Shown: in pieces, positions 18,609-57,266 of the stretch
How the letters are laid out: the number at the start of each line of letters is the position of its first letter
Numbering within the stretch: position 1 is the first letter of the stretch
Virus record (IMG/VR): IMGVR_UViG_3300020347_000005
Span: 1 to 58,980 of that record
Strand: one strand, 5' to 3'
From: a virus
Lineage: Duplodnaviria; Caudoviricetes
DNA: 58,980 nt
Program-made: the position numbers and the translations under genes
The notes under the pieces: model-generated
Told to the model about the DNA's origin: nothing
The model's database searches: none
What the model saw: the letters and a program-made list of their open reading frames with translations, nothing else

Positions 18609-20336
18609 TTAAGCCCATCCACCATCAACTTTATCTTCTGCACCAAAAGTAAGGTACATAGTTTCTGGGTGATGACCAGCTTCAACAATTTGATATCTAG
18701 ACTTCATTTGCATTTTCGGAGCCATAGTTCCTTCTGCAATTGTTTCAACAGTATCAGCCATAACGTAAGGCATGAATACAAGACCTGGTGTGTTACCGTC
18801 TCCTTTTCTACCTAATGCAATTCTAACATCTTCCCAAGCCATAACTGGGTCAACATAAATTGCAATACCAGCTAATGTTCCTAATGGATACAATGCTCCA
18901 GGAACTTGGTTGATAGTATTAGCGATTGGGTAAGGAACGAATCCAGCACAATCTTGGAATCCACTTGCAGCACCTCCAGAACAAACTGCGAATGTAGCAG
19001 GTCCTCTTCTACCTCTTACAGAGATAATGTTTGAAGCAGCAAGCATTCTTGACATTAAACGTCTTTGTCTTGTTCCTAAGTTTTCAGCACCAGTATTAGA
19101 TGCATCAACTCCAGTTACAGAAAGTGTACTTGCGAAATATTGCCAAGAACCTGTTAAAGCAAATGCACCAGCACCACCTGTGTTTAAATAAGGACCACCA
19201 GCAGCACCATTATCTAAGATTAAGTGGTAATTTCTACCAGAAACAGCTTCAATGTTTTCATGGTTCAATTTTCCTAATCTGAAAATGTTACTAAGTATAT
19301 CTCTATTGATAACTTGTGTCATTTCGTTTGCTAAGAATTGGTTTGCTTGTGCAACCGCATCAATACCGAATTGTTTTAAATCCATTAATTGCTCTCTTGT
19401 TACTGCAGCAGCGGCTTGAACCGTTTTTGCTTCAATAGCTTTAGAGAATAATTGAAGGTTTCCAGTATTAGATTGAATAGCTTCACCTTGTTGTCTAGTC
19501 ATTTTAGTAACTTCACCGAATTCAGAAACACCTTGGTTAGTTGAGAAATCAACGATGTGGTCTTCTAAACCTTTAACTAATTCTGCTTTAGATTCAATGT
19601 TAAAAGTTCCGGCAGCTCCTACTGTTCCAGGGTTTGTAGCAACAATTACTGTTCCAGCTCCCGGTGCAGTAACTGCAGGAATTATAGCTGAAATTGTATT
19701 AGTTCCAGTTAATTTTTCTGGCACTTTAGCAATTACATATCCATCAATTCTTGACTTTCCAAGAACCGTAAATAACAATCCTTCAGCAACACCATTACCA
19801 TTTGCATTTGCAAAAGTAAACGTAGCACCATCAACAATAGCACCCGCAGTAACATCTACAGCTTTAAATTTAACGTAAAGTGGAGAATTAGGTGATTTAC
19901 CATCAGTTCCAGTAGCATATGGGTCAGACAATGCAGCATATCCATTTTTACCTCCACCGTAAACGAAATCCATATAAGATAACATTCCTACTGGTGAATT
20001 CATTGGAATAGTTGGAACTAATTCCAATCCAATTGTTTGTGCAGCAACTTGAATTGCTAATGGTAAAAGAGAATAAGGTACATCTCCAGAACCTTTAGTT
20101 CCTCCTGTCCAACCTTGACCAGTTGAAGATGGTAATTCTACAGCTCCCATACCATTTACAGAACCAGGGGTTGCGTAAAAGTTATTTTCATTTAGTCCAC
20201 CACCAAGTCTTGCTTCGTAGTTTTCTTGTAATTGACAGATTGTAGCAACTAATTCTTTTTTAGATTTGTCTACACCCGTTCCAATTGTTTGGTCGATAAC
20301 TGGTGACCAGTTTTCTAATAATTGATGTTTGTTCAT
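18609..20336 (-). CDS. gp23: Major capsid protein
   Basis: LLENWSPVI, LVPTIPMNSPVG, EQLMDLKQFGIDA, LANEMTQVINRDI, RGRRGPATF, FMPYV, PKMQMKSRY. Confidence 0.93.
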   Translation of the reverse strand: MNKHQLLENWSPVIDQTIGTGVDKSKKELVATICQLQENYEARLGGGLNENNFYATPGSVNGMGAVELPSSTGQGWTGGTKGSGDVPYSLLPLAIQVAAQTIGLELVPTIPMNSPVGMLSYMDFVYGGGKNGYAALSDPYATGTDGKSPNSPLYVKFKAVDVTAGAIVDGATFTFANANGNGVAEGLLFTVLGKSRIDGYVIAKVPEKLTGTNTISAIIPAVTAPGAGTVIVATNPGTVGAAGTFNIESKAELVKGLEDHIVDFSTNQGVSEFGEVTKMTRQQGEAIQSNTGNLQLFSKAIEAKTVQAAAAVTREQLMDLKQFGIDAVAQANQFLANEMTQVINRDILSNIFRLGKLNHENIEAVSGRNYHLILDNGAAGGPYLNTGGAGAFALTGSWQYFASTLSVTGVDASNTGAENLGTRQRRLMSRMLAASNIISVRGRRGPATFAVCSGGAASGFQDCAGFVPYPIANTINQVPGALYPLGTLAGIAIYVDPVMAWEDVRIALGRKGDGNTPGLVFMPYVMADTVETIAEGTMAPKMQMKSRYQIVEAGHHPETMYLTFGAEDKVDGGWA

Positions 20337-20372
20337 TTTAACAACATTTTTTTTGTTTTAAATTCAAATATT

Positions 20373-21998
20373 TTAAATCATTCTAAATCCTCTTAACTTA
20401 GCAAGTCTTGCTTCCGTAAGTTGACTTTGAGATGGTTTTTCAACATTTTCCTTTTTTTCCTCTTTAATCAAATTTTCTTTTGTGAACTCATTGTTCCAAA
20501 ATGACTTGATTGAAGATTCATTAATGAAATTGAAAAGTGATGCTCTTTTTTTAATTCTCGACTTTTCGCCTTCTTGTAAATCATTCCAAGTTTCTTTATA
20601 CTTAGTAGGCATTAATTGCATCCATAATGGTGCTTCTTGCTTACTTTCGTTTAAATCTACTTTTTGTGATTCGTTTAGAGAGTTGTTGTCAGTTGCTCTT
20701 TGCTCCTTAGCTTCTAAGATATTCTCTAGTTTATTATATATACTTTCTTTAAAATCTTCGATTTTTGATTCGTTGATTTTTTCATTTCTTACTCCTTTTG
20801 TATCAGAATTTTCTAAACTCGATACAGATTCAGTTACGTGGTCTGTCCAATTTTCAATTGCACTAACAGATTCAGTTACATGATTAGACCATTTTTCTAC
20901 ACCAGAAACAGTATCCGTTGCGTGGTCAGACCAATCTTCTAATGCACTAACAGTTTCAGTAACGTGTTGTGACCAAGATTCTACACCATTAACAGTATCA
21001 GTTGCATGTTGTGACCAATCTTCTATTGCACTAACAGTTTCTGTTACGTGATTAGACCAATTAACCATTGATTCAAACTTTGCTTCTAATTCATCATACT
21101 TTTCTTGTAAAGATGAATCCGAACCTTCTTTAACAGAATCAAATTCTTCTTTTACATGGTCAGCCCATTTTTCAATTGCTGATAATTTTTGATTTACAGA
21201 TTCAAATTTTTGTTTGAATTCAGCATTACTGTATTCTTCTACGATACCATCGTTTTGTTCAATAATACTTTCTTGAATTTCTTTCATGTCAGCAATTTCG
21301 GATTTAACACCTTCTATTGCCTCTTTTGTGAAATCTGTGTATTTGTTGAATTCGCTTTCTTTTAGATAATCCATTGTTTCTACGTGCTTATTTTTATTAT
21401 TTAACTCTTTAATATCTTGTTTGATTTGTTTACCTATTTCATAGATTGCAAAATCACTAAATACATCTAATTCTGTATTTTCGTTTAGCATTCCGAATGA
21501 TTCATTTACACTACTTAATCTTGCATTTGCAAAACCTGGCGTGTCAACTAAATCGTAGGTAAATAATTTATGAATCTTTACTGATTTATCTTCTGTAACA
21601 GTACCGGCAGCTCTTGATGATATATGTAAAGGAATTCCAGCATCAACAATTGCTTTTGCTTGTTTACCAGCATCAGTATCCAACAATTTGATTTTTCCCA
21701 TCACCCTGTTGTTTTTTTCGTCCATCCAAATTTCTTCAATTTTATGAGATACATTTTTCAATGTAGTTTCAAATTGTTTTGGGTGGTCTAATTCACCAAC
21801 AGCTGTTCCACTTTCTACAACTTTTTTTAGTGCTTCGAAATGCGGTTGAAATTCTTTTCTAGTATAAACTCTACCGTTTCTATTTTCAGAATCAAATTCT
21901 GTAAATACACCTTCTAAGACATATTTATCATTATCAGATGCATTAGCGATAGGCTTTACTGAAAATTTCGATTTTTCTATTAATAAGTAATCTTTCAT
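20373..21998 (-). CDS. gp21: Prohead protease fused to a coiled-coil scaffold-like domain
   Basis: LEGVFTE...NRNGRVY, GELDHP, VSHKI, ISSRAAG, TYDLVDTPGF, followed by about 370 aa of acidic helical sequence. Confidence 0.92.
   Translation of the reverse strand: MKDYLLIEKSKFSVKPIANASDNDKYVLEGVFTEFDSENRNGRVYTRKEFQPHFEALKKVVESGTAVGELDHPKQFETTLKNVSHKIEEIWMDEKNNRVMGKIKLLDTDAGKQAKAIVDAGIPLHISSRAAGTVTEDKSVKIHKLFTYDLVDTPGFANARLSSVNESFGMLNENTELDVFSDFAIYEIGKQIKQDIKELNNKNKHVETMDYLKESEFNKYTDFTKEAIEGVKSEIADMKEIQESIIEQNDGIVEEYSNAEFKQKFESVNQKLSAIEKWADHVKEEFDSVKEGSDSSLQEKYDELEAKFESMVNWSNHVTETVSAIEDWSQHATDTVNGVESWSQHVTETVSALEDWSDHATDTVSGVEKWSNHVTESVSAIENWTDHVTESVSSLENSDTKGVRNEKINESKIEDFKESIYNKLENILEAKEQRATDNNSLNESQKVDLNESKQEAPLWMQLMPTKYKETWNDLQEGEKSRIKKRASLFNFINESSIKSFWNNEFTKENLIKEEKKENVEKPSQSQLTEARLAKLRGFRMI
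20815..21062 (-). repeat. 42-bp / 14-aa tandem repeat (6 copies) W[ST]xH[VA]T[ED][TS]V[SN]xxE
   Basis: WSNHVTETVSAIED, WSQHATDTVNGVES, WSQHVTETVSALED, WSDHATDTVSGVEK, WSNHVTESVSAIEN, WTDHVTESVSSLEN. Confidence 0.9.
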
Positions 21999-22029
21999 TT
22001 TCTTTAATTAATTTTGTTATAATTTATAT

Positions 22030-22037
22030 TATTTAAT
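22030..22037 (-). promoter_or_regulatory. Putative late promoter ATTAAATA for gp21-gp23
   Basis: Intergenic between gp20 and gp21; recurring octamer. Confidence 0.6.
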
Positions 22038-22056
22038 CAAATTTATTTTTAACTTT

Positions 22057-23673
22057 TTAAAAGTCTGCATCTTCGTCATCTTCCATTCCTTCTTCCATTT
22101 GTTTATCTTCTTTGGCTTTTAACTTTCTATTAAGTTTTAAGTCAGATTCGGATAAAGTTGTAAGGAATTTTCTAACTAAAAATTCAGAACTAAAAAATCT
22201 TACTTCATTTCCTTCAGCATCAAAATCAATCAATGAATCTTTTGCAGAACTAATTAAGTCTAGTTCACTTTGTAGTAATTCAGTTTCTTTTAATTTTTCA
22301 AATATATCATATCTTGCCCAAGATAAATTTACTTTTGATTCGAATAATGGGTCATCGGCTAATTCTTTGATATCTCTTTTAGTTTGTAAAACTACAGGTC
22401 TGATAAGTATTTCTTGTATTTTACCTCTTAATCTATCAACAAATCTACTGAAATATATTTCTTCTCTAGTATATCCTTCGGCTGAAGATTCGAATGTAGG
22501 GGATTCATCTTTTATAAATCGGTTTCTAGGAACTTTCGAAACTTGAATTAATTTATCAACGAAATAATTCAAAGATTCAGTATCGGATAAATCGGGACCA
22601 TCATTTCCTATATTTTCAATTTGAGGGGTTCCTTGGTCACCTTCAGGAATCCAATATTCTTTTGAAAACGGCATCATTGATTTACCGTTTATTTTCAATT
22701 CTCCAGATTCGTTATCAAAATCTACATTTTCTCTATATGATTGCATTAAAGAACCAAGAGTCTGTTTTGCCATTTGTTTAGATTTCCCACCAACCGGTAT
22801 AACGAACTTAGTTTTATATGATGAATTTACAACAGCCCAAATAATTCTAGATTGTTCCATAATTCTCAATAAGTTAAAAGAACGTATTAATCTTTCAGTA
22901 TAAGAAACTCTATTTTCGTTATTGATTGCAGAATAAGATAAGAATATAACTTGTGCATCGGACAATTCTCTTTTCTTTACAGCATCTAGTGGATATTGTA
23001 CCCAACCTCTGGTACCATCTTCATAAATTTTAGGTGTCAATGAAATTGGGTCTAGTTCTTTAAATCCTATAATATTAGTATTTGAATTATCCCAAATAAT
23101 TTCGTATGCTAGGTATCCATCAATTAAAAATTTCTTTACAAAATACCAAGCTGTATTTTCATTTTTGAATCCAAAAAGATTATATATTTTCTTGAAATTA
23201 TCGTTTAAATTTTCGTTTATAATTTCTGAAAATTCTTCTTTCATATTCGGGTCTGATTCAAAATCAATTTGTGCAAAATATCTATCTGTATTATAAACAA
23301 CAATTTCATCCGTTAAAGTATCCAAAACCATTTCGATTTCATCTTGCATTGCATACTTTCTAAGTTGTTCTATTCTTCCTGGATAACTTTCGTCAAAAAA
23401 TGGAATATTCTTTTTAGAATAAATGTCAGAATAAGAAAAATCATATAGTTGGTCCATGTTGTTGTTATCATAACCATAACGTAACATATTGTTATTATCT
23501 TGCCAACCTATTTCGTTTTCAATAGAACCTATTGCTTCTGAATTAGATATAACACTATCCTTAAAATCGTATCCTCTTCCTGATAATTTTCTAAGTGTAG
23601 TATTTCTAAATGTTTTATTGTTAACATTTGGATTAGTACTATTCACTCCATTTCTATTAAATATAGATGCCAT
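22057..23673 (-). CDS. gp20: Portal protein
   Basis: FLIDGYLAYE, ELDPISL, NLLRIMEQSRIIW, EYWIP, EEIYFSRFVDRLR. Confidence 0.93.
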   Translation of the reverse strand: MASIFNRNGVNSTNPNVNNKTFRNTTLRKLSGRGYDFKDSVISNSEAIGSIENEIGWQDNNNMLRYGYDNNNMDQLYDFSYSDIYSKKNIPFFDESYPGRIEQLRKYAMQDEIEMVLDTLTDEIVVYNTDRYFAQIDFESDPNMKEEFSEIINENLNDNFKKIYNLFGFKNENTAWYFVKKFLIDGYLAYEIIWDNSNTNIIGFKELDPISLTPKIYEDGTRGWVQYPLDAVKKRELSDAQVIFLSYSAINNENRVSYTERLIRSFNLLRIMEQSRIIWAVVNSSYKTKFVIPVGGKSKQMAKQTLGSLMQSYRENVDFDNESGELKINGKSMMPFSKEYWIPEGDQGTPQIENIGNDGPDLSDTESLNYFVDKLIQVSKVPRNRFIKDESPTFESSAEGYTREEIYFSRFVDRLRGKIQEILIRPVVLQTKRDIKELADDPLFESKVNLSWARYDIFEKLKETELLQSELDLISSAKDSLIDFDAEGNEVRFFSSEFLVRKFLTTLSESDLKLNRKLKAKEDKQMEEGMEDDEDADF

Positions 23674-23700
23674 ATCGTTTTCTTTTGTTGTATTATTTAA

Positions 23701-24782: not shown

Positions 24783-24787
24783 ATAGT

Positions 24788-24834: not shown

Positions 24835-24852
24835 AATTATATGGTTCAAGAC

Positions 24853-25602: not shown

Positions 25603-25613
25603 ATCTATAATTT

Positions 25614-32743: not shown

Positions 32744-33133
32744 CTATTCCATTATTCCTTTTATGTCAAACCCTGGAAGATACTTTTTTGCAAATTCATC
32801 AAATACGAATAATATATCATATCCATCCCATTTCAACATTTTTGCATATCCTATACCTCTTTCTCTAAGACTTTTATCCCAATATTCTTTATTACTAGCC
32901 ATCCTATCATCCAATTTGGCCTTTGGAAATATAGAATCTAATATTCCAGCTTCTGAATGAAAGTTTGCATCTATTAATGCAGCTTTCAATATTGCTTTAA
33001 ATGAATATTGTAAATCCGTAGAACCTTTTTCTTCAGTTCCTAAATAAGATTCTAAGTCAGACAAAACTTTTTTACTATTTCTAGCTTCGTTTAAAGATTC
33101 GTTTTCTGTTAAGTAATGTTTTAAGTTATTCAT
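32744..33133 (-). CDS. Hypothetical protein with variant leader
   Basis: MNNLKHYLTENESLNEAR. Confidence 0.65.
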   Translation of the reverse strand: MNNLKHYLTENESLNEARNSKKVLSDLESYLGTEEKGSTDLQYSFKAILKAALIDANFHSEAGILDSIFPKAKLDDRMASNKEYWDKSLRERGIGYAKMLKWDGYDILFVFDEFAKKYLPGFDIKGIME

Positions 33134-33146: not shown

Positions 33147-33728
33147 TTAATCTAATGAACCGAATTTTCCTTTGCCCATATCACTTGCAAAATCTCTTGA
33201 ACCTTGCGAACTTAATTTAATATAGTAAGAATCTGTTGCTTTTCCACCTCTACCAAAATAAGACTTCAATTGAAAAGTATCAATTGCTTTTGCATCTTTA
33301 CCTTTAAGAGTTTCTTTTAATGTTTTTTCAACCTCTTTTCTCCAATTTTTATCCGTAGGTTCAATTTTAATACTTTGACTTGCAAATGTCTTTAAATCAA
33401 CAGGAACACTTATTGATGAAATTGTATCCGGTAATTTCTTAATTGCTTTCAATAAATCTTTTAAAGATTTACCTTCGGATTCAAATCCTTCGTTAATACT
33501 TTCTTTAAGTTCAACCATATTCATACCAACAACTTGTTCTGGTTTAATAATACCACCATCAAATTCAATCGGTTCAATGATTATTCTTTTAGTACCGTTG
33601 TTAACATTAACAACTTTATATTCCATATCTTTTTCTGATGGGTCATCTAAGTATTCATCTTTGATAGTAACAATACTACCTTCCTTAAATTTCTTTCCTT
33701 CGTTTAAAAATTCGTTTAATGCTTTCAT
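33147..33728 (-). CDS. Hypothetical two-domain protein with leader
   Basis: MKALNEFLNEGK; internal LKESINE-G separates an SH3-like N-part from a second domain. Confidence 0.7.
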   Translation of the reverse strand: MKALNEFLNEGKKFKEGSIVTIKDEYLDDPSEKDMEYKVVNVNNGTKRIIIEPIEFDGGIIKPEQVVGMNMVELKESINEGFESEGKSLKDLLKAIKKLPDTISSISVPVDLKTFASQSIKIEPTDKNWRKEVEKTLKETLKGKDAKAIDTFQLKSYFGRGGKATDSYYIKLSSQGSRDFASDMGKGKFGSLD

Positions 33729-33731
33729 ATC

Positions 33732-34034
33732 TTATAACTTATTTACTATTTGTTCTTCGAATTCACTTCTACTTATAGAAAAAATCAATCCACCTCTTAC
33801 ATTAACATCATCATATTTAAAAGTAAATCCTGTTTGATTTTTGATATGATATTCTATTTCATCTATTTGATTTTCTTTGTCTGCGTTGACCCTATCAAAA
33901 TCTTTAGATGTTTTAGGTAAATATTGAAATACAATATCATTTCTACCACTAGTATCCATAGTAATTAGATAAGTAACACCACCATATACAAATGTTTTCA
34001 TCTTTTCGTTTAAAAAATTATTTAATTGTTTCAT
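33732..34034 (-). CDS. Hypothetical protein with leader
   Basis: MKQLNNFLNEK. Confidence 0.7.
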   Translation of the reverse strand: MKQLNNFLNEKMKTFVYGGVTYLITMDTSGRNDIVFQYLPKTSKDFDRVNADKENQIDEIEYHIKNQTGFTFKYDDVNVRGGLIFSISRSEFEEQIVNKL

Positions 34035-34035: not shown

Positions 34036-34332
34036 TTAATATCCTAATTTTGATTTATCGAATTTGGGGTCAATTTTGTAGTTAGAAAAGTTTGATATAT
34101 CTTTTTTTCTACCGAACAATACATAATCTACAAAATCTTTTGCTGTTACTAGTTGTTGTAAAGCATCATCAATATCCGATGGTATAACATCACCAAATAA
34201 ATCTTTTCTTAGTTCTTTATATTGTTTGAAAGTCTTAAAAGATTCTCCTTTTGATAATTTGTGTAGTTTAATCAAATCTTCTTTAGTAAATTTTTCTTTT
34301 CTTTCGTTTAAAAATTCGTTTAATGCTTTCAT
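34036..34332 (-). CDS. Hypothetical protein with leader
   Basis: MKALNEFLNER. Confidence 0.7.
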   Translation of the reverse strand: MKALNEFLNERKEKFTKEDLIKLHKLSKGESFKTFKQYKELRKDLFGDVIPSDIDDALQQLVTAKDFVDYVLFGRKKDISNFSNYKIDPKFDKSKLGY

Positions 34333-34634
34333 ATACTATTTACGATTTGATTAGCGATTGTTTTCATATCATCTCCAGAAATATAATTTCCAGTAGCATA
34401 ACCACCAGTATTAACATAACTTTGCAATAGATTTACAATCCATTGAACATCGGTAGATGATAAATATTCACCAATTTCATTAGCAATTTTTTGAATGTCG
34501 GTTTCTGGAATATAAAGTCCTTTTTCTGTTTTAAGAGTTGAATATGCATTAGTAGAGAAAGAATCTAATATCATTCTAACCCTTTTTTTATCTTTATTTT
34601 TACCTTCGTTTAAAAAATTATTTAATTGTTTCAT
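34329..34634 (-). CDS. Hypothetical protein with leader
   Basis: MKQLNNFLNEGK; late promoter 4 nt upstream. Confidence 0.7.
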   Translation of the reverse strand: MKQLNNFLNEGKNKDKKRVRMILDSFSTNAYSTLKTEKGLYIPETDIQKIANEIGEYLSSTDVQWIVNLLQSYVNTGGYATGNYISGDDMKTIANQIVNSI

Positions 34635-35945: not shown

Positions 35946-37166
35946 TTAAAATAAACGTTTTTTAATTTTCAACGAACCTGACAATGCATTTATACCAGGC
36001 ATCGACTGAATAATATTGTTCAATGGATTAATAACTGTTTTTTCGAACATTAAATCAATATCAATTTCGGGTGCAAATTCTTTAGGATGCGCTCCTCTAT
36101 TGAAAGAAAATACGTTATATGCTTCTTTGTGTGCTTTTGCATAATACCATTTAACCTTATCTCCAGTTCTAAGTCTTTCGTACTTATTTTCAAAAGATGG
36201 ATTGTTGTTAATAAACATATTGTGAATTGCAGCACCTCTAACATGCGTACTACAACCACTTGCATAATTTAAACTTTCTTTATCGTCTAAAATATATTTT
36301 TCGTAATCACCTATTCCGGTTGTAATACAAATATCTTCTAAGTCAGCAATTGCAAATCTTTTTTTCAATTTCAATAATTCAATAGTAATATCTCTTTGTG
36401 TGAAATTTTTACCATTGTCAAATATCCATTGAACTAATTTAGACAATTCCGGTCTACAAAAAGGCGGTGTTGTTAAACGAATAATTTCAAGTCCTGTCGT
36501 TTTTGTATAAGTACCTGGTTCGTAGAACTTACCATCTTGCCAGACAATATCTTGTGTGTATTTTTTCTTTTTAACCCAAATACCAGATTTACTTATAGTT
36601 TCTAATTCAAAATCTAAATAATTTTCAGTGTTGTAAGATTGTGCATATTTATCAAATACCTTTTTTAGATAATTTTTTAACCTAAATTCGTTTATTGTTA
36701 ATATAAAATCAGCAGCAGAACCCGTCCAATTTATTTTTTCTGCAGCCTCTTCAAAGGTAACATAAGCCGAATCGGTATCCATATAAACAACAGTAGGTTT
36801 TACACAAGGAACTGGTTCTAAGTTTACATCAGGACATATATCTTTTAGTTTTTTCAAAAGAGCAATATCTTTGTGAAACATTTTATGAAAGTAAGTATCT
36901 AATGCTTTTTCAGAATATCTAATTGCATCTTGACCTTGCATAGTAATTGTTTCAGCAAGTGTTTTATTATAGAAATAAAAATACTTACTGGCCATCGCAC
37001 CGTATATAGAATTCAATACTAATTTATTGGATTGTTCTAGTGTTGAATATATATTTGCTTCATCTTGTAATTGAGATAGAACCGAATCGGTTTCAGATGG
37101 AGATAGAGAACTCCAATCGAAATTCTCTATCTCTTCTGTTGACATATTTTGAATAGTTGCTGTCAT
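35946..37166 (-). CDS. gp43B: Family B DNA polymerase, C-terminal subunit (fingers/palm/thumb)
   Basis: KLVLNSIYG (motif B), YMDTDS (motif C), KKKY, TGLEIIRLTTP. Confidence 0.93.
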   Translation of the reverse strand: MTATIQNMSTEEIENFDWSSLSPSETDSVLSQLQDEANIYSTLEQSNKLVLNSIYGAMASKYFYFYNKTLAETITMQGQDAIRYSEKALDTYFHKMFHKDIALLKKLKDICPDVNLEPVPCVKPTVVYMDTDSAYVTFEEAAEKINWTGSAADFILTINEFRLKNYLKKVFDKYAQSYNTENYLDFELETISKSGIWVKKKKYTQDIVWQDGKFYEPGTYTKTTGLEIIRLTTPPFCRPELSKLVQWIFDNGKNFTQRDITIELLKLKKRFAIADLEDICITTGIGDYEKYILDDKESLNYASGCSTHVRGAAIHNMFINNNPSFENKYERLRTGDKVKWYYAKAHKEAYNVFSFNRGAHPKEFAPEIDIDLMFEKTVINPLNNIIQSMPGINALSGSLKIKKRLF

Positions 37167-37948
37167 TAAAGTTCAACTTCTTCATGTAACGTAATAACTA
37201 CTTCCATAGTTTTGTCAATTGTTTCAAAGATAATCTTATCTTCATCTAAGATTGGATAAACATTATATGAATTTGCATCAACAGCTCTGAATAATTTCTT
37301 ATCTAACTTATAAGATTTTTCTCCACCTTGATTAAGTCCTTCGAATTCTTCATCTATATCAATAGAATATGAACCTTCTGAACAAACCTTTACTTGACCG
37401 TTGACTTTAAATTCTAATTCATCACTTGAATCAAAATCCATAAATTTCTTAACTTGCAAGATTTCGTTTGCAGTCATTTTAAATTTACAGTCAGAAGATG
37501 ATGTATCTTTTACTTCTGCAATCTTTTCTTCTGGAACATTTGCAAATTCAAAAAGAGTTGGGTCTGCAGCATCTAATGTTAATGAAATTTTAGGACTGGA
37601 AACTTTCATAGTTTCACCAAAATATTCTCCATCTAATTCAGAATACACAATTTCAACTTTAATTTCACCACCACTTAGAAAACTAAATGCTTTCTTTACT
37701 TTGTTACCATCATAGAAACAAAGTTTAATTGGTGATGATAATCCATCTAAATTTGATTCACCACATAATTCTCCTATTTGCATTCTCATACTTTTGATAA
37801 GTGTTCCAGATGAATTATGTGCATCTGTTCTGATTCCTTCTTGGTCTATTTTGAAATAGATAGTTGAGGCTTCATCTAAAGGAATTAACGAATCTATAAA
37901 GTTATTGAACTTTACTAAATCTACGGTTTTTAATATTACTTTCTTCAT
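37166..37948 (-). CDS. gp45: Sliding clamp (gp45/PCNA-like)
   Basis: 260-aa acidic protein with two-domain clamp size and central AADPTL linker; located within the polymerase locus. Confidence 0.65.
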   Translation of the reverse strand: MKKVILKTVDLVKFNNFIDSLIPLDEASTIYFKIDQEGIRTDAHNSSGTLIKSMRMQIGELCGESNLDGLSSPIKLCFYDGNKVKKAFSFLSGGEIKVEIVYSELDGEYFGETMKVSSPKISLTLDAADPTLFEFANVPEEKIAEVKDTSSSDCKFKMTANEILQVKKFMDFDSSDELEFKVNGQVKVCSEGSYSIDIDEEFEGLNQGGEKSYKLDKKLFRAVDANSYNVYPILDEDKIIFETIDKTMEVVITLHEEVEL

Positions 37949-37979: not shown

Positions 37980-39488
37980 TTATTTACGGTTTTGTTTTAT
38001 TTCATGTGCTATTTTTGCACATAATTTTGAACGATATTGATTTTTCTTTCTATCGGTATACAATTCATCATATACTCCTTTCAATGTTGATTCTCCTTTT
38101 TTGAATACACAGCCAGATACTGAAATGATTTCATCGTTCTTAGGTCTTTCTATTTTAGAAGTTATTGGTTTGTATTTACTGTAATATTTTAGGTTATTTG
38201 TTTCCTTTCTATCAAAGTTTTCAAAACCTAATTCTAAGAAACGAGAAATTGATGGATACAGTGAACTAAAATCATAACAAGCTGTTAATTCATGCAGTCC
38301 AGCAATAGGTGATTTTACATAAGCTCCTTCGTACCATTCTTTTTCTCTTTGTGATATATCAATATTTGGTAAAACTTTTCCATTTTCTATATATGCCTTA
38401 GACATATATCCTTCGGTAACATTTACAGCAGAATCGGCCTTGTCTATTGGATTACAAGAACCATTTCCTTGTGCCAAGATTGCAGAAAACGGTTGTCTTC
38501 TTTCGTGAATCAATAGAACAAGAATAGTATCGACTGCGTTATAAAGACAATATGTATCATAATCTTTGTCGTACATCTCTTTTAATACAGCACCATTCAT
38601 TGCTGGATAATTTCCATACTTCAACTTTTTTACCTTTAATACTTGCGAAGAAATAAAATCTAAACTTTTAGATTCCTTTATTTTTATACTTCTATCGAAC
38701 GCATCAAAGTAATACATATAATCAATAACTGAAAAGTGGTGGGGAACTTTACCTACATCTTTTTTGTTGTTTAATTTGTTGGTAGGAGAAATAGATTTAT
38801 AATCAACTTTAAGGTTATCCATTCTTTTAGTCAAGAAAGGCCAATCAAATCCGTTGTTATTCATCCAATTTTGTCTGAATGTATTTATAAAGTTCCATCC
38901 TGTTATAACGTGAAATTTTGAACATATCTTTACAAAAGATTCTAAAAGTTTTACTTCATCCGGAATATGAATATATTTTAGTATTATTTTCAAATCAGTT
39001 ACTTTAGAAAAGTAATCGGATAAGAATTCGTTCATTTTCTTTTGCTTATCGTAATCAAAATTTTCTTTTTCTCCTAATATAACAACTTGAATTTTATTAT
39101 TGTCATCTTTCCAACAAACAGTTATTGCAGTTATTTTTTCTTTTGCTACGGTTACATCCGGGAATCCATCGTGAATATCTGTTTCAATATCGCAAAATAA
39201 AATCTTAGGCATATTGAATTCATACAATATCTTTTTATATTCGGGATGTGTATTAATCCATTCCCAAATACTTTTTTTATCAATTGTATCGTTATCTTTG
39301 TAAGAAATTCTTACTACTCTTTTATCATCCCAAGATTTATATTTGATGTCGGCATTAGGACCTTCATAATATCTCCATTTCCAGAAGTCTCTTTTTTTAA
39401 CAGACAAAATTTGTCTATTTCTATCAGAATCAATATAAGAAATTTTGACAGTATCCGAATATCTGTTTTGTTCTATGTCTAATATCAT
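37980..39488 (-). CDS. gp43A: Family B DNA polymerase, N-terminal subunit (exonuclease plus motif A)
   Basis: DIET (ExoI), TGWN...FDWPFL (ExoII), YNAVD (ExoIII), YEGAYVK, YDFSSLYPS. Confidence 0.93.
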   Translation of the reverse strand: MILDIEQNRYSDTVKISYIDSDRNRQILSVKKRDFWKWRYYEGPNADIKYKSWDDKRVVRISYKDNDTIDKKSIWEWINTHPEYKKILYEFNMPKILFCDIETDIHDGFPDVTVAKEKITAITVCWKDDNNKIQVVILGEKENFDYDKQKKMNEFLSDYFSKVTDLKIILKYIHIPDEVKLLESFVKICSKFHVITGWNFINTFRQNWMNNNGFDWPFLTKRMDNLKVDYKSISPTNKLNNKKDVGKVPHHFSVIDYMYYFDAFDRSIKIKESKSLDFISSQVLKVKKLKYGNYPAMNGAVLKEMYDKDYDTYCLYNAVDTILVLLIHERRQPFSAILAQGNGSCNPIDKADSAVNVTEGYMSKAYIENGKVLPNIDISQREKEWYEGAYVKSPIAGLHELTACYDFSSLYPSISRFLELGFENFDRKETNNLKYYSKYKPITSKIERPKNDEIISVSGCVFKKGESTLKGVYDELYTDRKKNQYRSKLCAKIAHEIKQNRK

Positions 39489-40768: not shown

Positions 40769-41185
40769 TTATTTATAAACATATGTTTTTATTTTTCTAC
40801 CATAGTTAATTTCTAAACTTTTAATAGTTTCTTTAGACATATCAACAGTTTCTAAAAATTTCCAATTACCTATTCTTTTCGTAGTGTTATAATTAACAAA
40901 CATTTCTCTAGTTCCTTCTGGTTTTTTACTAAATTTGTTATTTGCCGAACCATAACCAAAAACTATTTTATATCCAAGAGGTTCTCCATCAATTTTTTTC
41001 ATTTCGTCATCGTCTTGCCAAACTTCTGCGTGCATATCTTCCCAATCAGTCCACACTTCTTGGATAGTTTCTTTTTTAAAAATACCAGATGCAAATTTTG
41101 AATTTTTTACATCTACTGTTCCAGAAAATAGTACATAGTTTCCTTCATATCTTATTTCGTTCAAAAATTCGTTTAATGATTTCAT
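40769..41185 (-). CDS. Hypothetical protein with leader
   Basis: MKSLNEFLNEI; ATTAAATA at 41190-41197, 4 nt upstream. Confidence 0.7.
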   Translation of the reverse strand: MKSLNEFLNEIRYEGNYVLFSGTVDVKNSKFASGIFKKETIQEVWTDWEDMHAEVWQDDDEMKKIDGEPLGYKIVFGYGSANNKFSKKPEGTREMFVNYNTTKRIGNWKFLETVDMSKETIKSLEINYGRKIKTYVYK

Positions 41186-47315: not shown

Positions 47316-48332
47316 TTAGTACAAATCTTTTAATGCGCTTCTTAGTAATTTCATTATTTGCTTGTCTCTTTTATTAGTACTACCTGCTAATAATTCCAAT
47401 GCTTCTTTAATAGAACCTTCTGCATATCCATCTTCATTCAATTTAGCTTCGAGCAAAGAAGACAATTCTCTAATGGTAAACTGGTCTTCTATTTTATCTA
47501 TAAAGTCACCAATCATTTTGTGTCTTTTGTCCTTCTTGTCATATAAGGTTGCTGCCAAGTCATTTAATGTATTTAAAATATCTTTCTTTGATTCATTCAA
47601 TTTAGCTTCGTGCATTGATTCATTATGTTTAAAAACAAGACTAAAAATTACACCTTTTTTGTCGATATCAACTTTACCGTCTTTGTGTAACTTTTCCATA
47701 TCATCTTTAGAAATGTGTATTTCTGCAGTTTCACCTTTGTCATGTTCAAGAATGTTTCCATCCATGTCATACTCAGCTTCCGGTAATCCAGCAGCTTGTC
47801 TTAATTCGATATCATCAGCTTCGATAAAATCAGAAAGTGCTTCAAGTTCTGCAATTTCACCATAACTTAGGTCTTCTCTTCTTAAAGATTTTCTAATTTG
47901 TTCTAGTCTTTTTTTAGCGTCTTTTTCTTTGATTTTCTTTGCCTCATTTACTTTTTTTTTACTAGATTCGTTATAACTATCTTCTTCCATTTCATCGTCT
48001 TCAGATTCTTCCATTTCTTCGTCTTCAGATGAATATAATTCTTCTTTGTCTTTTCCTTTGTCCTTAGATTCGTAAGATTCTTTTTTAGATTTCATTTCTT
48101 TAGAATCTTCATCTTCTTCTGAATCATAATCTTCTTCAACTTGCTTTTCGTTTGTTGGTTCTTGTGTCCACTCTTTATCTATTTCATTAAAGAATTTCTT
48201 TTTGTCAGCATCAGATAATTCAGCCGGTGATTTAACATCAAATTTCTTTAATTTTTTATCAAAAAATTCTTGATATTCTTTTTGTTTTTTAGACTTCTCA
48301 GCTTCGTTTATAAAATTAGTTAACTTTTTCAT
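47316..48332 (-). CDS. Acidic leader-bearing protein, probable prohead core/internal protein
   Basis: MKKLTNFINEAE; YQEFFDKKLKKF..KSPAEL domain; D/E-rich linker; repeated VNE/LNE sites. Confidence 0.65.
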   Translation of the reverse strand: MKKLTNFINEAEKSKKQKEYQEFFDKKLKKFDVKSPAELSDADKKKFFNEIDKEWTQEPTNEKQVEEDYDSEEDEDSKEMKSKKESYESKDKGKDKEELYSSEDEEMEESEDDEMEEDSYNESSKKKVNEAKKIKEKDAKKRLEQIRKSLRREDLSYGEIAELEALSDFIEADDIELRQAAGLPEAEYDMDGNILEHDKGETAEIHISKDDMEKLHKDGKVDIDKKGVIFSLVFKHNESMHEAKLNESKKDILNTLNDLAATLYDKKDKRHKMIGDFIDKIEDQFTIRELSSLLEAKLNEDGYAEGSIKEALELLAGSTNKRDKQIMKLLRSALKDLY

Positions 48333-48365: not shown

Positions 48366-48869
48366 CTATTCGTTTATTGTAGTTTTGTTTATAACTCTTT
48401 GACCTAATTTAGAAAGTTTACAACATATTACACCATCTTTTGTAAATTCTTTAATGTAAGATGAATTTTTATTAAACCAACTCATACTAGTTCTAGAACC
48501 AGAATCTTCATTTTTTGATTGTATAAATTCTTTTAATTCTTGTTTGGTGCAATGTCCTTTTTCTGCAATGAAACCTAATATGTTATTTCTAACAGGAGCA
48601 TTTGCACCAACTTTTATAGAATCATATTGACCGTATTTTCTTTTTACTTGTAAAGTTTTTCTTTCGTCAATCTTATCAGGTAAATTAGTTTCTTTAGTTT
48701 CAGCATAATCTTTTAGTTTATCTTCTGGTAACTTTGAAAGTTCTATTATTTCATCAGATACTTCATCTTTTTCTATTTCACCTCTTTTATATGCTAATGC
48801 CATACCGAATAATCTTCTTTGAGATTTTGACTTAGATGCTTCATTTAAAAATTCATTAAGTGATTTCAT
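48366..48869 (-). CDS. Leader-bearing protein with DUF3008-like domain
   Basis: MKSLNEFLNE-ASKSKSQRRLFGMALAYKRGE...LKDYAETK..LP. Confidence 0.65.
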   Translation of the reverse strand: MKSLNEFLNEASKSKSQRRLFGMALAYKRGEIEKDEVSDEIIELSKLPEDKLKDYAETKETNLPDKIDERKTLQVKRKYGQYDSIKVGANAPVRNNILGFIAEKGHCTKQELKEFIQSKNEDSGSRTSMSWFNKNSSYIKEFTKDGVICCKLSKLGQRVINKTTINE

Positions 48870-48871: not shown

Positions 48872-49108
48872 CTATTTTATTTTTTTATAAATAGAAACCC
48901 AACTTGAACCTATTTCTTGTAAGGAATCTGGATTTGTATTTTTAGGTTTATTTCTAGTAGTTACACTTAATTGTATCATACCGTCTAATAACGCAATAAC
49001 ATTTGCTTTTTCTAAAGATTCATACTCTGAATCTCCGTATTTAGAATCTAAATATTCTTTTACTTGTAATGAAAAATTTTCATTCAGAAAATAACAAAGG
49101 CCCTTCAT
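48872..49108 (-). CDS. Hypothetical protein with variant leader
   Basis: MKGLCYFLNEN; GTTAAATA at 49113-49120, 4 nt upstream. Confidence 0.6.
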   Translation of the reverse strand: MKGLCYFLNENFSLQVKEYLDSKYGDSEYESLEKANVIALLDGMIQLSVTTRNKPKNTNPDSLQEIGSSWVSIYKKIK

Positions 49109-50654: not shown

Positions 50655-50688
50655 AATTACTTTCTTTAGTACATATTATTTAACTATG

Positions 50689-51144: not shown

Positions 51145-51338
51145 TAAAATAGTTTTTTCCCTTTTTTGGGTTCTTTAATTTTTATAGTAGGTTTTTTAAT
51201 TGTTGGTTTTAGTTTTTCTTGTTCAATAACTATATCATTACCTTTCGGTTCTGGAATAATTTCTTTGTCAAAATCTACAATAAATAACTTACCATTTCTC
51301 TTTACAATTTTCTTTTTATTTTTGTATAAATTAAACAT
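51144..51338 (-). CDS. Small basic hypothetical protein
   Basis: 64 aa, coupled to both neighbours; ends KKLF. Confidence 0.55.
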   Translation of the reverse strand: MFNLYKNKKKIVKRNGKLFIVDFDKEIIPEPKGNDIVIEQEKLKPTIKKPTIKIKEPKKGKKLF

Positions 51339-52416: not shown

Positions 52417-52433
52417 TGTGATTTTTTGGAAAT

Positions 52434-52465
52434 AAAAAAGGGGAATAAAAAACTTATTCCCCTTT
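52434..52465 (-). terminator. gp32 terminator
   Basis: AAAGGGGAATAA-loop-TTATTCCCCTTTTT. Confidence 0.8.
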
Positions 52466-52480
52466 AAAAACTATTAATTA

Positions 52481-53473: not shown

Positions 53474-53836
53474 AATTTTACTTTTTTTTACTTTGTTTTT
53501 ATAAATTTACTTTCATACTCAGTAGCTACCTTTTGTATTACTTATATAGTTAAGCAAATTAATAATCAAAATATTTTATCAATATCAAATTATTTTTACT
53601 ATTTAGAATGATTCTAAATAGAGGGGTAAATCAAAAAAAGTTAGGGTAAAATAAAATAAAACCTGATGGCTACTCATTTAATAATTGTATAATTCTCCAG
53701 GGGAAAATATATAGTGCTAAAAAATCTATTAGTATTAGTTTAATTAAAGATAATATATTAATAATAATGATAATATAAAGAAAGATTTACATAGATATTT
53801 GTCTTTAATATATATAAGAACTTAAAGTAAAAACAA

Positions 53837-54106
53837 ATGGAATTTAATCAATTCAAATATAGTAAAAAACATGATACATATAGAACACTAGTAAATGTAT
53901 ATAATTTTAAAAGAGAAGATTTAGAAGTCTATGTTCGTAGTGATTATAAAATAGTTGTTACAGATTATTTATCGGAAGAAATTATTATTGTTCCTGAAAG
54001 AGTAAAAATAGAAAAAATTATTTGTCATTTCGTAAATAAAGAAGAAACAATATTAATGATTGAATTAAAATTAAAAGATTTAGAAATAGAAGTAGTTTTT
54101 GAATAA
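53837..54106 (+). CDS. Small Hsp20/alpha-crystallin-like protein (degenerate)
   Basis: YRTLVNVYNFKREDLEVYV...VPERVKIEKI...ILMIEL pattern. Confidence 0.45.
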   Translation: MEFNQFKYSKKHDTYRTLVNVYNFKREDLEVYVRSDYKIVVTDYLSEEIIIVPERVKIEKIICHFVNKEETILMIELKLKDLEIEVVFE

Positions 54107-54582
54107 TGAGCAAAAGAATAATAATATGTGGTCATGGTGGTTCCGGAAAAGACTATCTTAAAAATAAATTAGTAGAAAAAGGATTCAATCCAAGTATTTC
54201 ATTTACTACCAGAAAAGCAAGAGTAGGAGAAATTGATGGTGTAGATTATTACTATTGCAGTAATGAACAATTCGATTCAATGATTAAAAATAAAGAATTG
54301 TATGAGTACAAAGAATTCAGAGGATGGTTTTATGGAACATCTTTAAAAGAATTTTATAGTTCTGAAATATTCATAATGACACCACCTTCAATAAAAGAAC
54401 TATCAAAAAAAGATAGAAAAAATTCTTTTATTGTTTATTTAGATATTGATGAAAGGATTCGTAAAATGAGGTTATCAAGTAGAAACGATGTTGATTCTGT
54501 TGATAGAAGATTAAGGACTGATAAAGAAATGTTTGAAAATTTTAACGATTACGATTTAAGAATAGTAGAACCTGATTTTTAG
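54106..54582 (+). CDS. gmk: Guanylate kinase-like nucleotide kinase
   Basis: GHGGSGKD, SFTTRKARVGEIDGVDYYY, WFYGT. Confidence 0.85.
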   Translation: MSKRIIICGHGGSGKDYLKNKLVEKGFNPSISFTTRKARVGEIDGVDYYYCSNEQFDSMIKNKELYEYKEFRGWFYGTSLKEFYSSEIFIMTPPSIKELSKKDRKNSFIVYLDIDERIRKMRLSSRNDVDSVDRRLRTDKEMFENFNDYDLRIVEPDF

Positions 54583-54814
54583 GTTTTTTATTTTTTCTTT
54601 TGAGAACTTTCAATCTTAATCTTTGAAATCTTGTTAATTCCTTAGAAAAAATATATTCATCTACTTTAAAAAATATCAATGAACCTATAAGATTAGCAAT
54701 AAATGCTGTTATCCAAAAGTTGGAAATATTGAACTTAGATAGTACAAAAGGAATAATTGCCAATATAGGTGTGCTCATTTGCCACCTAAACATATATCTA
54801 AATAGTTTTTTCAT
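54542..54814 (-). CDS. Small membrane protein
   Basis: RWQMSTPIL, ANLIGSLIFF.VD.YIF; two TM segments. Confidence 0.65.
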   Translation of the reverse strand: MKKLFRYMFRWQMSTPILAIIPFVLSKFNISNFWITAFIANLIGSLIFFKVDEYIFSKELTRFQRLRLKVLKRKNKKPKNQVLLFLNRNR

Positions 54815-55320
54815 GACTTTTTAAATTGGGGTTCTACGTTATATTTTTCAAATAGTTTTTTTAATGGTGCTGTTAAGTTACCTTTCTTTTGTTTAAATTC
54901 AGGAACTTTTTGTCTACCATTAATTTCTTTTACTAATTTATTGTAACTTGATTTCATTAAAATAGGTTTTCTTGGTGCTTCATTTGGATGTATCAATTTT
55001 TCATCTGTATGAATCTTGTTACTTTCTAAATAATCAGCAAGGTTTCTAAGAAATGTAATCATATCTATATGTTTACTTAATCCTAATCTATTGAATGAAT
55101 TTGTAATTTTTCCTTCTAATGCATTTGCTTGAAATTGAATTGCACCTCTGCATAATCCTTTCCCTGTTTCATCTGCAACTTCTTTTACAAGTTTATGTTG
55201 ATGGTCTATACAAAATTCTGAAATATCATAATAGTTTCCAAGTATAGGACAAATACCATTTTGTTCCTTGTACCATTTTTCTCTTATAATTTTTAAGTCT
55301 GTTTGTTTTAGTTGTTTCAT
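54811..55320 (-). CDS. gp49: Recombination endonuclease VII
   Basis: EQNGICPI, IDHQH, CRG...ANALEGKI, FLRNLADYLE, IHP. Confidence 0.85.
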   Translation of the reverse strand: MKQLKQTDLKIIREKWYKEQNGICPILGNYYDISEFCIDHQHKLVKEVADETGKGLCRGAIQFQANALEGKITNSFNRLGLSKHIDMITFLRNLADYLESNKIHTDEKLIHPNEAPRKPILMKSSYNKLVKEINGRQKVPEFKQKKGNLTAPLKKLFEKYNVEPQFKKS

Positions 55321-55838
55321 ATATTATCAATTATGAAATCTAATGTATCGTCTTTTCCTTTAAGATTCTTAAAATACTTAGAAGAAATATATTCATTTTT
55401 TAGATTGTTTTGATTATCGTATGCCTCCTTTTCCCAAGCCAGGTTTTTATAGTTATCGTAGTTTTTTTGAGCTTTTTTATAATCTTTAACTGAAAGTTCT
55501 GTATCATCTTTCCATAAAACAGATTTCCAATCTTCGGATGCTCTAAGTTCACCTTTTGATATTTGTTTAACATGTGTTAATTCGTGTATCAATGCACCTA
55601 TTATCATTCTATAACCTTGATTTGGATTAAAATGTAATGTGAATTTACCTTTATTTATAGATGCATCACTAAGTACAACATCTCCTATATGTGTATCAGA
55701 AAACTTTTTCTTTACTGTTATTCTATTAGGTTTGAATTTTAATTTATCTTGCATAAATTCAATAACAGAATCAATTAAAAGTCTTTCGTGTTTTTTAATC
55801 TTTTTATCTTCTTTAAAAAATTCAAATAAGTATTGCAT
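55317..55838 (-). CDS. Zinc metallopeptidase-like protein (HExxH)
   Basis: LIHELTHVKQ ... AWEKEAY; leader-like N-terminus MQYLFEFFKE. Confidence 0.75.
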   Translation of the reverse strand: MQYLFEFFKEDKKIKKHERLLIDSVIEFMQDKLKFKPNRITVKKKFSDTHIGDVVLSDASINKGKFTLHFNPNQGYRMIIGALIHELTHVKQISKGELRASEDWKSVLWKDDTELSVKDYKKAQKNYDNYKNLAWEKEAYDNQNNLKNEYISSKYFKNLKGKDDTLDFIIDNI

Positions 55839-55848
55839 TATAATTAAT

Positions 55849-56232
55849 TTATTCTAATAAGTATATAAGTCTGTTTATTACTGAAGATAATCCTTTTTCA
55901 CTATAAGTATCTTTTTGTCTTATATAAGACATATATCCACTTTGTACATCCATCAAAATTATAGACCATTCTTTAGTATGAACCGTTGGTGGAAATATTC
56001 TGAAAACATCTTTTCCTTTGTTAATAACTGCGATACGGTCAGCACCATCTGCCTTGTCGCTAAAAAGAGGACCATCAACTCTAACAACATATCCTTTTTC
56101 TTTAAGTTTTTTACTAAGAAGTTTATTACCATTTATTGTTCTTTCGGCAGCCAAAAGTTCCTTTTTTCTTTCTATGTTTCTTTCTCCAACATAGTCTCTG
56201 TATTCATTTAGGAATTGGTTTAAAGGTTTCAT
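55849..56232 (-). CDS. Hypothetical protein with leader
   Basis: MKPLNQFLNEY. Confidence 0.7.
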   Translation of the reverse strand: MKPLNQFLNEYRDYVGERNIERKKELLAAERTINGNKLLSKKLKEKGYVVRVDGPLFSDKADGADRIAVINKGKDVFRIFPPTVHTKEWSIILMDVQSGYMSYIRQKDTYSEKGLSSVINRLIYLLE

Positions 56233-56234
56233 AA

Positions 56235-57266
56235 TTAAAATAATTTTTTTGTCAATTCTTGAGCTAATGCAGCACTAACTATTCTTGAAGTAAGAACATT
56301 AAAAAGTGGTCCTTTTTCTATTCCAAGAACTTTAGCAATCGCCTTTCCGATTTTTGGTCCAACTGCAAATCCAGCTATACCTCCCAATGCTCTACCTAAT
56401 ATACCTTCATTTAAAGTTTCGGGTTCTGTTAGTATTTTTGTTAGTAATTCTATTTGTAAATTTTCTAAGACTTCAATATTCTTAGAAACTATTTTATCAA
56501 TTTTCTTTTTTAAAGATTTAGTATCTGTATCTAATATTCTTGAAATAGTATCTAAAGATTTTATATCTACTAATCCATTATAACTAATATGTAAATTAGT
56601 CAATTCAGGTACAATAGAAGAAAAGTCTTCAGAATTTCTTTTTGATAATTCAGTTGCTAAAATTTGTATTAAAGTTGCCGGGTCTCCAAAATCCTTAATC
56701 GGAATATATATTTCTTTTTCTGAAAGAACCTTATCTTCTTTAATTTTCTTGAATTTTTTCATCGAAATAGTTTTTGCTGGTTCTTGAACCGAAACTTCAT
56801 CATCGGCTGTTCCACCAAACACATCACCACTACCTAATTTATTTCCACCTACTTCTGGTATTTCAACTGCTCCCATTCCGTTAATAGAACCAGGTGTAGC
56901 TGAAAAATCATTTTCATTAAAAATTCCTAATTTATCTTTATTTTCAATTTCTTTTAAAATCAAAGCAATATTATCGGCAATAATTTCATTTGTTTTTTTA
57001 CCACTACCTAAATTAGCAAGTTCTTTGTTAATCTTGTTTATTTTCTTTCTAAGTTTATTATCGAAATGTTTTGATTTGTTACCTATTTGCATAGCTCTAT
57101 TGTAGTAGTCTTTAAGTGCACCACTAGTAACTAAAGGATTCTTTTCATCTCTTGCAGCACTTTCTAAATCGCTTAGACCTTGTAAATACTTATCTAAAGG
57201 CATTTTTCTTTCTTCATTCAATTTATCGAATGAAACCGAATTATATATATTATTAAATTTCTCCAC
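56235..57266 (-). CDS. Putative processed virion protein carrying a copy of the gp23 N-terminal arm
   Basis: GTG start; late promoter 57283-57290; FNE-NDFSATPGSINGMGAVEIP..GSGDV; C-terminal LNE-GILG glycine-zipper-like helix. Confidence 0.7.
   Translation of the reverse strand: MEKFNNIYNSVSFDKLNEERKMPLDKYLQGLSDLESAARDEKNPLVTSGALKDYYNRAMQIGNKSKHFDNKLRKKINKINKELANLGSGKKTNEIIADNIALILKEIENKDKLGIFNENDFSATPGSINGMGAVEIPEVGGNKLGSGDVFGGTADDEVSVQEPAKTISMKKFKKIKEDKVLSEKEIYIPIKDFGDPATLIQILATELSKRNSEDFSSIVPELTNLHISYNGLVDIKSLDTISRILDTDTKSLKKKIDKIVSKNIEVLENLQIELLTKILTEPETLNEGILGRALGGIAGFAVGPKIGKAIAKVLGIEKGPLFNVLTSRIVSAALAQELTKKLF

Follow-up and report, generated by a model that had tools for sequence, protein, structure and literature searches.

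A predicted internal head protein of a T4-related phage carries a copy of the mature major capsid protein N-terminus behind its own putative cleavage site

The viral DNA analysed here (IMG/VR record IMGVR_UViG_3300020347_000005, 58,980 bases, hereafter the window) encodes, besides a gp23-family major capsid protein (MCP), a 343-amino-acid (343-aa) open reading frame (ORF) that repeats the N-terminus of the mature MCP directly after a putative protease cleavage site of its own. By sequence comparison, this copy is a true homologue of the MCP segment and is selected at the protein level. Other huge phages have modules of the same kind in small, unrelated proteins, and T4 has one in gp61.1; each resembles the MCP of its own lineage. 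We propose that the copy in the 343-aa ORF, as a portable module, imitates the MCP N-terminus and engages the putative partner of the real one, a reading that, taken whole, we hold to have a little under an even chance of being right. Apart from the T4 leader, only a handful of solved examples, DarA–Hdf of phage P1 among them, tell how internal proteins are positioned and retained in the heads of large phages; if the proposal is correct, a copy that changes along with the MCP N-terminus would amount to a second, simple addressing principle.

The MCP gene occupies positions 18609..20336 of the window and the 343-aa ORF, which has a GTG start, positions 56235..57266; both, like every window gene and feature described below, lie on the minus strand. 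Including the cleavage motif, the shared stretch runs from 20070 to 20195 in the MCP and from 56814 to 56921 in the ORF. Both ORFs and both stretches are found where the original prediction, made from the DNA letters alone, had placed them, with an LNE motif in the MCP and an FNE motif in the ORF directly before the copied residues. A local alignment of the two proteins contains 25 identities in 32 aligned residues, and BLASTP gives an E value of 5e-11; the first 23 codons of the two segments agree in 17 of 23 residues and in 51 of 69 bases. Comparison of the two family alignments with hhalign (probability 96.6%, E 6e-10) extends the match to 59 columns, ORF residues 98–167 against MCP residues 38–102, so that it begins about 15 residues ahead of the cut and continues for about 50 beyond it. 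Identical codons are used at 14 of the 24 identical degenerate residues; the codon usage of 27 window genes predicts 12.0 ± 2.3. This agreement is not above the codon-usage expectation, which indicates that the similarity is kept by protein-level selection and does not stem from recent DNA transfer. The prediction that the ORF has a cleavage motif of its own and, behind it, a copy of the mature MCP N-terminus, with residues kept while codons differ, is therefore upheld. A six-frame scan for the 15-residue core, allowing up to five substitutions, found these two places only, and a profile search likewise gave no third copy in the window. The search across window and relatives that had been suggested with the prediction also yielded further copies in other genomes, which follow their own MCP.

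The MCP has 575 aa and is assigned to its family by Pfam (PF07068 Gp23, E 2.9e-29) and by PHROG 28442 and 138; its AlphaFold2 (AF2) model has a mean predicted local distance difference test score (pLDDT) of 80. A tblastn search among named phages found 31 relatives (15 Lak phages, 6 uncultured huge phages, 5 Tenacibaculum, 2 Chryseobacterium, 2 Sphingomonas PAU and 1 Flavobacterium phage), the closest being LR756500 at 42.8% identity. The putative propeptide (residues 1–50, 20187..20336), modelled as two helices with pLDDT of about 80 followed by a disordered stretch, ends in LNE (residues 48–50, 20187-20195), a motif read from the sequence at which cleavage would be expected by T4's rule. The mature N-terminal segment that this cut would expose (residues 51–86, 20079..20186) contains a GMG..P core and a GSGD core, and residues 46–89 are disordered in the AF2 model, with pLDDT below 50. 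We retrieved 551 MCP relatives and applied a crude pattern to 110 representatives of at least 500 aa among the best 149: 91 have a GSGD-like core, 84 a GxG..P core and 71 both in order. An alignment of 80 MCPs has six invariant columns, of which two, G64 and G82, fall in the segment; its residues G62, S83 and D85 reach at least 90% conservation, which puts the two cores among the best conserved positions of the MCP family. When short proteins were searched by words for a match to MCP residues 45–100, three came up, all of them truncated MCP fragments.

The segment stands before the conserved N-arm helix and hence corresponds in position to the N-fist of T4 (gp23 residues 66–91); the term 'N-arm', under which the copied part was originally described, is slightly off. 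The available portions of the T4 structural reports describe an N-fist that touches four subunits in the mature head (PMC9958956) and is disordered in the five subunits facing the portal (PMC7136217). In the unexpanded head, gp23 residues 66–105 are disordered and inward-facing and probably contact the scaffold core; on expansion the N-fist is externalized and then lies on the outer surface between capsomers, as far as the accessible text goes (PMC9546572). The disorder of the MCP segment and of the ORF copy in our monomer models parallels the unexpanded T4 head of that report.

The 343-aa ORF that carries the copy is predicted to encode a protease-processed internal head polyprotein of modular build. 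It has no Pfam match and no PHROG family at E ≤ 1e-5, and a Foldseek search of its model against the Protein Data Bank (PDB) found nothing (best E 0.35). The AF2 model, with a mean pLDDT of 61, is helical over residues 20–110, disordered over 111–183 and α/β over 186–280, with further helices at the C-terminus. We rejected the possibility that the ORF is a full member of the gp23/gp24 capsid family (PF07068, HK97 fold), because of the missing Pfam match, an hhalign match confined to 59 columns and this helical plus small α/β model. Starting at the N-terminus, an 18-residue leader ending in LNE (57213..57266) is followed by helical module A (residues 19–115, 56922..57212; pLDDT about 80) and by the FNE motif (residues 116–118, 56913..56921) at which cleavage would occur. 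Next come the copy itself (residues 119–149, 56820..56912) and a linker with a basic patch (residues 150–185, 56712..56819), which has seven lysines and arginines in the 35 residues after GSGD and ends in a possible further x-E site. Cut site, motif and basic patch thus fall within the disordered region of the model. A small α/β module (residues 186–284, 56415..56711; pLDDT about 80, no fold match) then leads to a second LNE (residues 285–287) and a 56-residue Gly-rich helical C-terminal peptide (together 56238..56414).

Conservation of the motif in orthologs had been set as a test beforehand. We found 25 relatives of the 343-aa ORF at E ≤ 1e-3 and aligned 22, leaving out three partial sequences (P0007, P0009 and P0020). 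All 22, down to 41% identity, keep the motif cores and, at the column of FNE, a preceding hydrophobic-x-E. K3 and F4 of the leader are invariant, as are G130, G132, P137, G145, S146, G147 and D148 of the copy, and K170, K171 and F172 of the basic patch are conserved. Six short-form orthologs (P0019 and P0021–P0025) are without residues 19–115, module A included; in these, nothing but such a leader stands before the cut site and the motif. The C-terminal LNE and the Gly-rich segment after it (residues 285–343), which the prediction had also pointed out, are present and form the best conserved part of the family: N286, E287, G291, G295, G299, G303, G307, G315 and G319 are invariant, and the helices are modelled at pLDDT 45–60. 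The same gene neighbourhood in LR756500 encodes a 125-aa protein that has only this Gly-rich module, behind INE. Searches with the C-terminal piece gave only small viral hypothetical clusters in the ESM Atlas (0.85–0.86, below the counting level) and, by words, two matches that are both likely ortholog fragments. The further suggestion that the released peptide might act on membranes, as a glycine-zipper peptide with a small-xxx-small repeat in a hydrophobic helix would, is pure conjecture.

The leader ending in LNE, together with a gp21-family protease gene in the same genome, suggests placing the 343-aa protein with the known internal head proteins that are leader-targeted and protease-processed, with the addition of a module not described in the papers searched; a literature search found no paper describing a module that copies the MCP N-terminus. 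The gene comes after a structural gene, with a gap of 19 nucleotides (nt).

Copies of the segment outside MCP genes are also found in other huge phages. A segment profile built from 19 sequences and run over 12 records detected, besides MCPs, a second copy in ORF-299 of PTm1 (E 4.4e-9), whose gene sits between the portal and protease genes, and another in a 140-aa ORF of LR756500 (E 4.5e-9, copy at about 265330-265434). The N-terminus of the LR756500 ORF looks similar to a DUF3008 protein of the window, a likeness seen by eye only, with no Pfam match. A ParB-like start of PTm1 ORF-299 was not confirmed, Pfam giving no match and PHROG only family 2859 of unknown function. We also dropped a 65-aa match in pT24 (profile E 1.6e-3), which the MCP segment of pT24 itself misses and which is not most like that segment. 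Searching eight complete genomes each with its own MCP segment, we found two further ORFs in LR756502 (2.5e-7 and 7.8e-4), two in LR745206 (1.5e-5 and 2.1e-4), one strong (3.7e-8) and one partial match in LR756501, and one weak match in Lak-A1 (3e-3). Two small frames, at about 230502-230558 of LR756501 (L065, E 5.7e-3) and 247862-247948 of Lak-A1 (L051, E 3e-3), begin directly with the GMG or GVG core of their own MCP, preceded by neither a leader nor a cleavage site. These are weak matches that might not correspond to genes, and the Lak-A1 frame, which gains no upstream extension under code 15, stays a weak case. Counted over the clade, a copy at E ≤ 1e-3 is present in five of ten complete genomes and a weak copy in one.

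In T4 itself, a search of the genome with gp23 residues 58–112 found gene 61.1 (E 1.5e-5), which encodes 54 aa, is annotated as a hypothetical protein and adjoins the primase gene in the primase-helicase cluster. BLASTP aligns gp61.1 with gp23 residues 57–93, that is, the cleavage site and the N-fist (E 6e-9, 17 of 37 identical). The leader pattern of its first ten codons occurs at three places in T4, in 61.1, ipII and ipIII, and at none in the control, which indicates that gp61.1 has the leader of the packaged internal proteins of T4. The order is an IPII/IPIII-type leader, an I-K-E site, a copy of the T4 N-fist and a K-rich tail. A tblastn search with gp61.1 matched 1432 phage records; among the listed matches, a few coincide with the MCP gene. 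Ac42, V07, Cronuts and PSTCR6 have longer forms, in which the module stands at the C-terminus behind an x-E site. The protein matches PHROG 1823 (3.1e-33), which like PHROG 2086, the family of the longer forms, has no known function; Pfam gave no match, and a literature search on the function of gp61.1 found no paper. Small gp61.1-like ORFs are labelled 'major capsid protein' or 'major capsid domain-containing protein' in GenBank, for example in HY01, KP179, Miro and ValerieMcCarty03; the labels are likely automatic and caused by the shared N-terminal segment, and the proposed module would give annotators a reason for them.

The copy-bearing proteins have a common order, with a leader or propeptide, an x-E site, a copy of the N-terminus of their own MCP and a basic tail. 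What precedes the copy varies: some have just a leader, others a DUF3008-like part or a 170-residue part of unknown kind. The tails after the motif contain 6–11 lysines and arginines within 35 residues in nine of nine examined. Among 14 second copies from huge and T4-like phages, 12 stand directly after a cleavage motif and two begin at the initiator Met.

When each of 11 second copies was scored against 19 MCPs in a Smith–Waterman matrix, the best-scoring MCP was of the copy's own lineage in every case. The MCP of the same genome ranked first for seven copies, second behind a sister genome for three and fifth behind members of the same clade for one. The margins over other lineages are wide; scores for own against best other lineage include 108 v 66, 95 v 70, 101 v 57, 105 v 78 and 66 v 35. 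Across T4-like phages the N-fist is too conserved for this test; the comparison of those phages left out the Cronuts MCP and a second copy in 44RR. The copy in a 172-aa ORF of LR756502, which has 17 of 21 codons in common with its MCP, may be recent, while the remaining copies share 36–62%, near the 50% (12.0 of 24) predicted from codon usage for the window pair. Pairing MCP and ORF contigs by shared sample was not used, as such contigs may derive from different phages.

On the basis of these comparisons we propose the following course of events. The 343-aa protein would enter the prohead by its N-terminal leader, as suggested by the capsid-targeting role of the T4 leader described in the available part of PMC5694885. 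The gp21-like prohead protease would then cut it at hydrophobic-x-E sites, and the cut after FNE (residue 118) would expose an N-terminus copying that of the MCP after its LNE cut (residue 50): some 30 disordered Gly-rich residues with the GMG..P and GSGD cores, followed by the basic patch. Once free, the copy would engage the same partner as the real MCP N-terminus, and its basic tail may touch DNA, holding the cargo at the shell. For the partner, we tentatively prefer those sites of the shell lattice that receive the N-terminal segment of the MCP; next to the vertices or the portal, some of them may be left unfilled. These lattice sites are favoured because the leader already covers targeting, because the copy is always placed where it would become a free N-terminus, like that of the MCP, and because P1 offers a precedent at penton-hexon junctions. 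The original prediction had assigned the motif a second route besides the leader; a separate second feature is indeed present next to a T4-type leader, and the idea is strengthened by the return of this design in other genomes, where it tracks the MCP of each. Docking on the inner shell, which that prediction inferred, is only one of several options, as the T4 segment faces inward before expansion and lies on the outer surface after it, according to the accessible part of PMC9546572. A co-fold of two MCP copies (residues 103–575) with ORF residues 119–170 scored 0.00; controls were not run and a true site would need four subunits from two capsomers, so this result is evidence neither way.

The main alternative, which we consider unlikely yet deserving of weight, is that the partner is the scaffold or protease core: the segment would bind the core in the prohead and cargo would copy it for co-assembly at the core–shell interface, with no role after cleavage. 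The inward-facing, disordered state of T4 gp23 residues 66–105 in the unexpanded head fits this alternative, as do the head-length mutants A66D, A94V and G97S, which map there and led the authors to propose contact with the gp22 core (PMC9546572, in the portion available). Moreover, the match between ORF and MCP begins about 15 residues before the cleavage site, and a co-evolving scaffold would account equally well for the lineage matching. Against it, the copy-bearing proteins already have a targeting leader, and the position of every copy, after a cleavage motif or at an initiator Met, suggests that a free N-terminus matters; a role after cleavage fits this better.

It is improbable, in our estimate, that the segment instead serves the protease, as a preferred substrate, an exosite, a timer or a decoy that tunes MCP cutting. 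A protease gene is present, and copies follow a hydrophobic-x-E motif at a similar distance, but 13 leader sites in the window and the C-terminal LNE of the ORF have no motif after them, the P1' residues vary, and the two copies that begin at the initiator Met have no site at all. The motif is thus not needed for cutting.

At least as improbable is a decoy that works outside assembly, titrating a host factor or defence sensor of the MCP N-terminal region, or one that competes in head expansion. Host defences do sense phage capsid proteins, and T4 61.1 lies in the primase-helicase cluster with no TATAAATA late-promoter box within 400 nt upstream. The leader that gp61.1 has in common with the packaged IPII and IPIII argues against such a decoy, as does the place of the window gene after a structural gene, and nothing in the analysis points to a host target.

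That the copies are functionless remnants of partial MCP duplication or recombination is very improbable: phage genomes are mosaic and the 172-aa copy in LR756502 looks recent, but the motif persists in all 22 aligned orthologs with synonymous sites saturated, recurs in at least six lineages as well as in the T4-like records, and conserves the very residues that the MCP family keeps.

Several points weigh against mimicry of the MCP N-terminus itself. The shared partner of the copy is a prediction, as are presence in the head and processing for the window phage and for PTm1. The T4 N-fist ends on the outer surface (PMC9546572, in the part available), and an internal protein would need to reach that side as well. 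No T4 head entry in the PDB has a gp61.1 chain, we know of no report of gp61.1 density in T4 heads, and the lack of a late-promoter box upstream of 61.1 noted above counts here too. Four of the ten complete clade genomes have no convincing copy (PAU, MA9V-2 and LR756504 none; pT24 only its weak match, unlike its own MCP), and the module would accordingly seem dispensable or replaceable. Five second copies were found with their own MCP segment as query, which biases them towards likeness to that MCP; those found by the generic profile are the copies of the window clade, PTm1, LR756500 and an 82-aa ORF of LR756502. Finally, the codons shared by the 172-aa copy of LR756502 and its MCP mean that some of the lineage match may reflect recent duplication or gene conversion instead of co-evolution.

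A more general form of the proposal, which we regard as rather doubtful but worth stating, is that T4-like phages from T4 to 735-kb huge phages share an unrecognized head peptide. Delivered by a leader and trimmed by the protease, this peptide would use its N-fist copy to fill lattice sites closed to MCP N-termini, next to pentons and the portal, and its basic tail to hold DNA or cargo. The 343-aa ORF would then encode a polyprotein form, from which a conserved Gly-rich peptide is released in addition. If mimicry of the MCP N-terminus is correct, it would explain the conserved T4 gene 61.1, and the module could possibly be used to tag cargo that is to be loaded into heads of the T4 type.

The surroundings of the two genes are those of a T4-like phage. 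The window has 29% G+C, and CheckV estimates its completeness at about 17% and that of related IMG/VR contigs of 43–81 kb at 15–28%, which implies a genome probably near 300 kb; the window is probably part of a roughly 300-kb T4-related jumbo phage. Portal, tail sheath and T4-like replication genes are encoded, and the genes for the MCP, the protease–scaffold fusion and the portal are adjacent. The fusion (541 aa, 20373..21998) consists of a prohead protease (PF03420 Peptidase_S77, E 7.1e-13; PHROG 207 head maturation protease, E 1.8e-42) and a scaffold-like C-terminal part with about seven tandem copies of a unit of about 14 residues that has a W-S-x-H core. Directly after the MCP gene, a 375-aa ORF (17399-18526) is rich in Lys and Glu, probably coiled-coil, carries LLE and LNE sites and has no family match; it may be another scaffold or core protein and is not like the gp24 vertex protein. 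At the other end of the window, a 470-aa structural protein (57530-58942) matches at its N-terminus a 184-aa ORF that adjoins the LR756500 homologue, and its C-terminal part has arabinofuranosidase-B-like and LamG-type domain matches. The DNA polymerase is split between two ORFs, one matching the N-terminal and the other the C-terminal half of PHROG 262, with a 260-aa ORF in between (35946-37166, 37166-37948 and 37980-39488).

Leaders of the type found on the 343-aa ORF are common in the window. Ten ORFs begin with M-K-x-L-N-x-F-L-N-E (6757-7272, 7287-8243, 8254-8670, 33147-33728, 33732-34034, 34036-34332, 34329-34634, 40769-41185, 48366-48869 and 55849-56232) and three more with close variants (32744-33133, 47316-48332 and 48872-49108). 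They are scattered among the replication genes and form a very large candidate capsid-targeted set for 59 kb. Among the 13 are a DUF3008 protein (48366-48869; PF11450, E 1.4e-7) and the 127-aa ORF adjoining the 343-aa ORF (55849..56232), whose T4-like targeting leader ends in LNE.

The 343-aa protein can be compared with several known systems. Cargo-loading peptides of encapsulins and the C-terminal tail of the herpesvirus protease-scaffold show that a short, disordered, shared peptide can direct proteins to one site of an HK97-fold shell; these peptides differ in being C-terminal, in not being copies of the shell protein and in acting without cleavage. IPII and IPIII of T4, which have a capsid-targeting sequence (CTS) cut by gp21, are alike in their short leader ending in hydrophobic-x-E, in a gp21-type protease encoded nearby and in the many leader genes per genome. 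However, no copy of the MCP N-terminus is reported for them, whereas the 343-aa protein has a second module after its leader and would be cut into several pieces. The vertex protein gp24 of T4 is likewise the product of a second MCP-related gene and is trimmed by gp21, according to the available text of PMC9546572. In contrast to the 343-aa ORF, which matches the MCP over no more than about 59 profile columns and shows no capsid fold, gp24 has the whole capsid fold and, as far as the accessible part of PMC9958956 goes, no N-fist. For phage P1, PMC12810830 describes 55 DarA–Hdf pairs on the inner shell at penton-hexon junctions, touching DNA. These ejectable internal proteins are anchored to the inner shell and turn a basic face to the DNA, a role of the kind proposed here, though they bind via helical bundles and not by a copy of the MCP N-terminus. 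In T4 gp61.1 the layout itself recurs, with leader, x-E site, copy of the N-terminal segment of its own MCP and basic tail, and the mature size is similar to that of the piece expected from the 343-aa ORF (about 45–65 residues). The two have no sequence relation beyond this layout, the 343-aa ORF matching no PHROG, and gp61.1 is the product of a stand-alone small gene by the primase gene that copies a quite different N-fist sequence.

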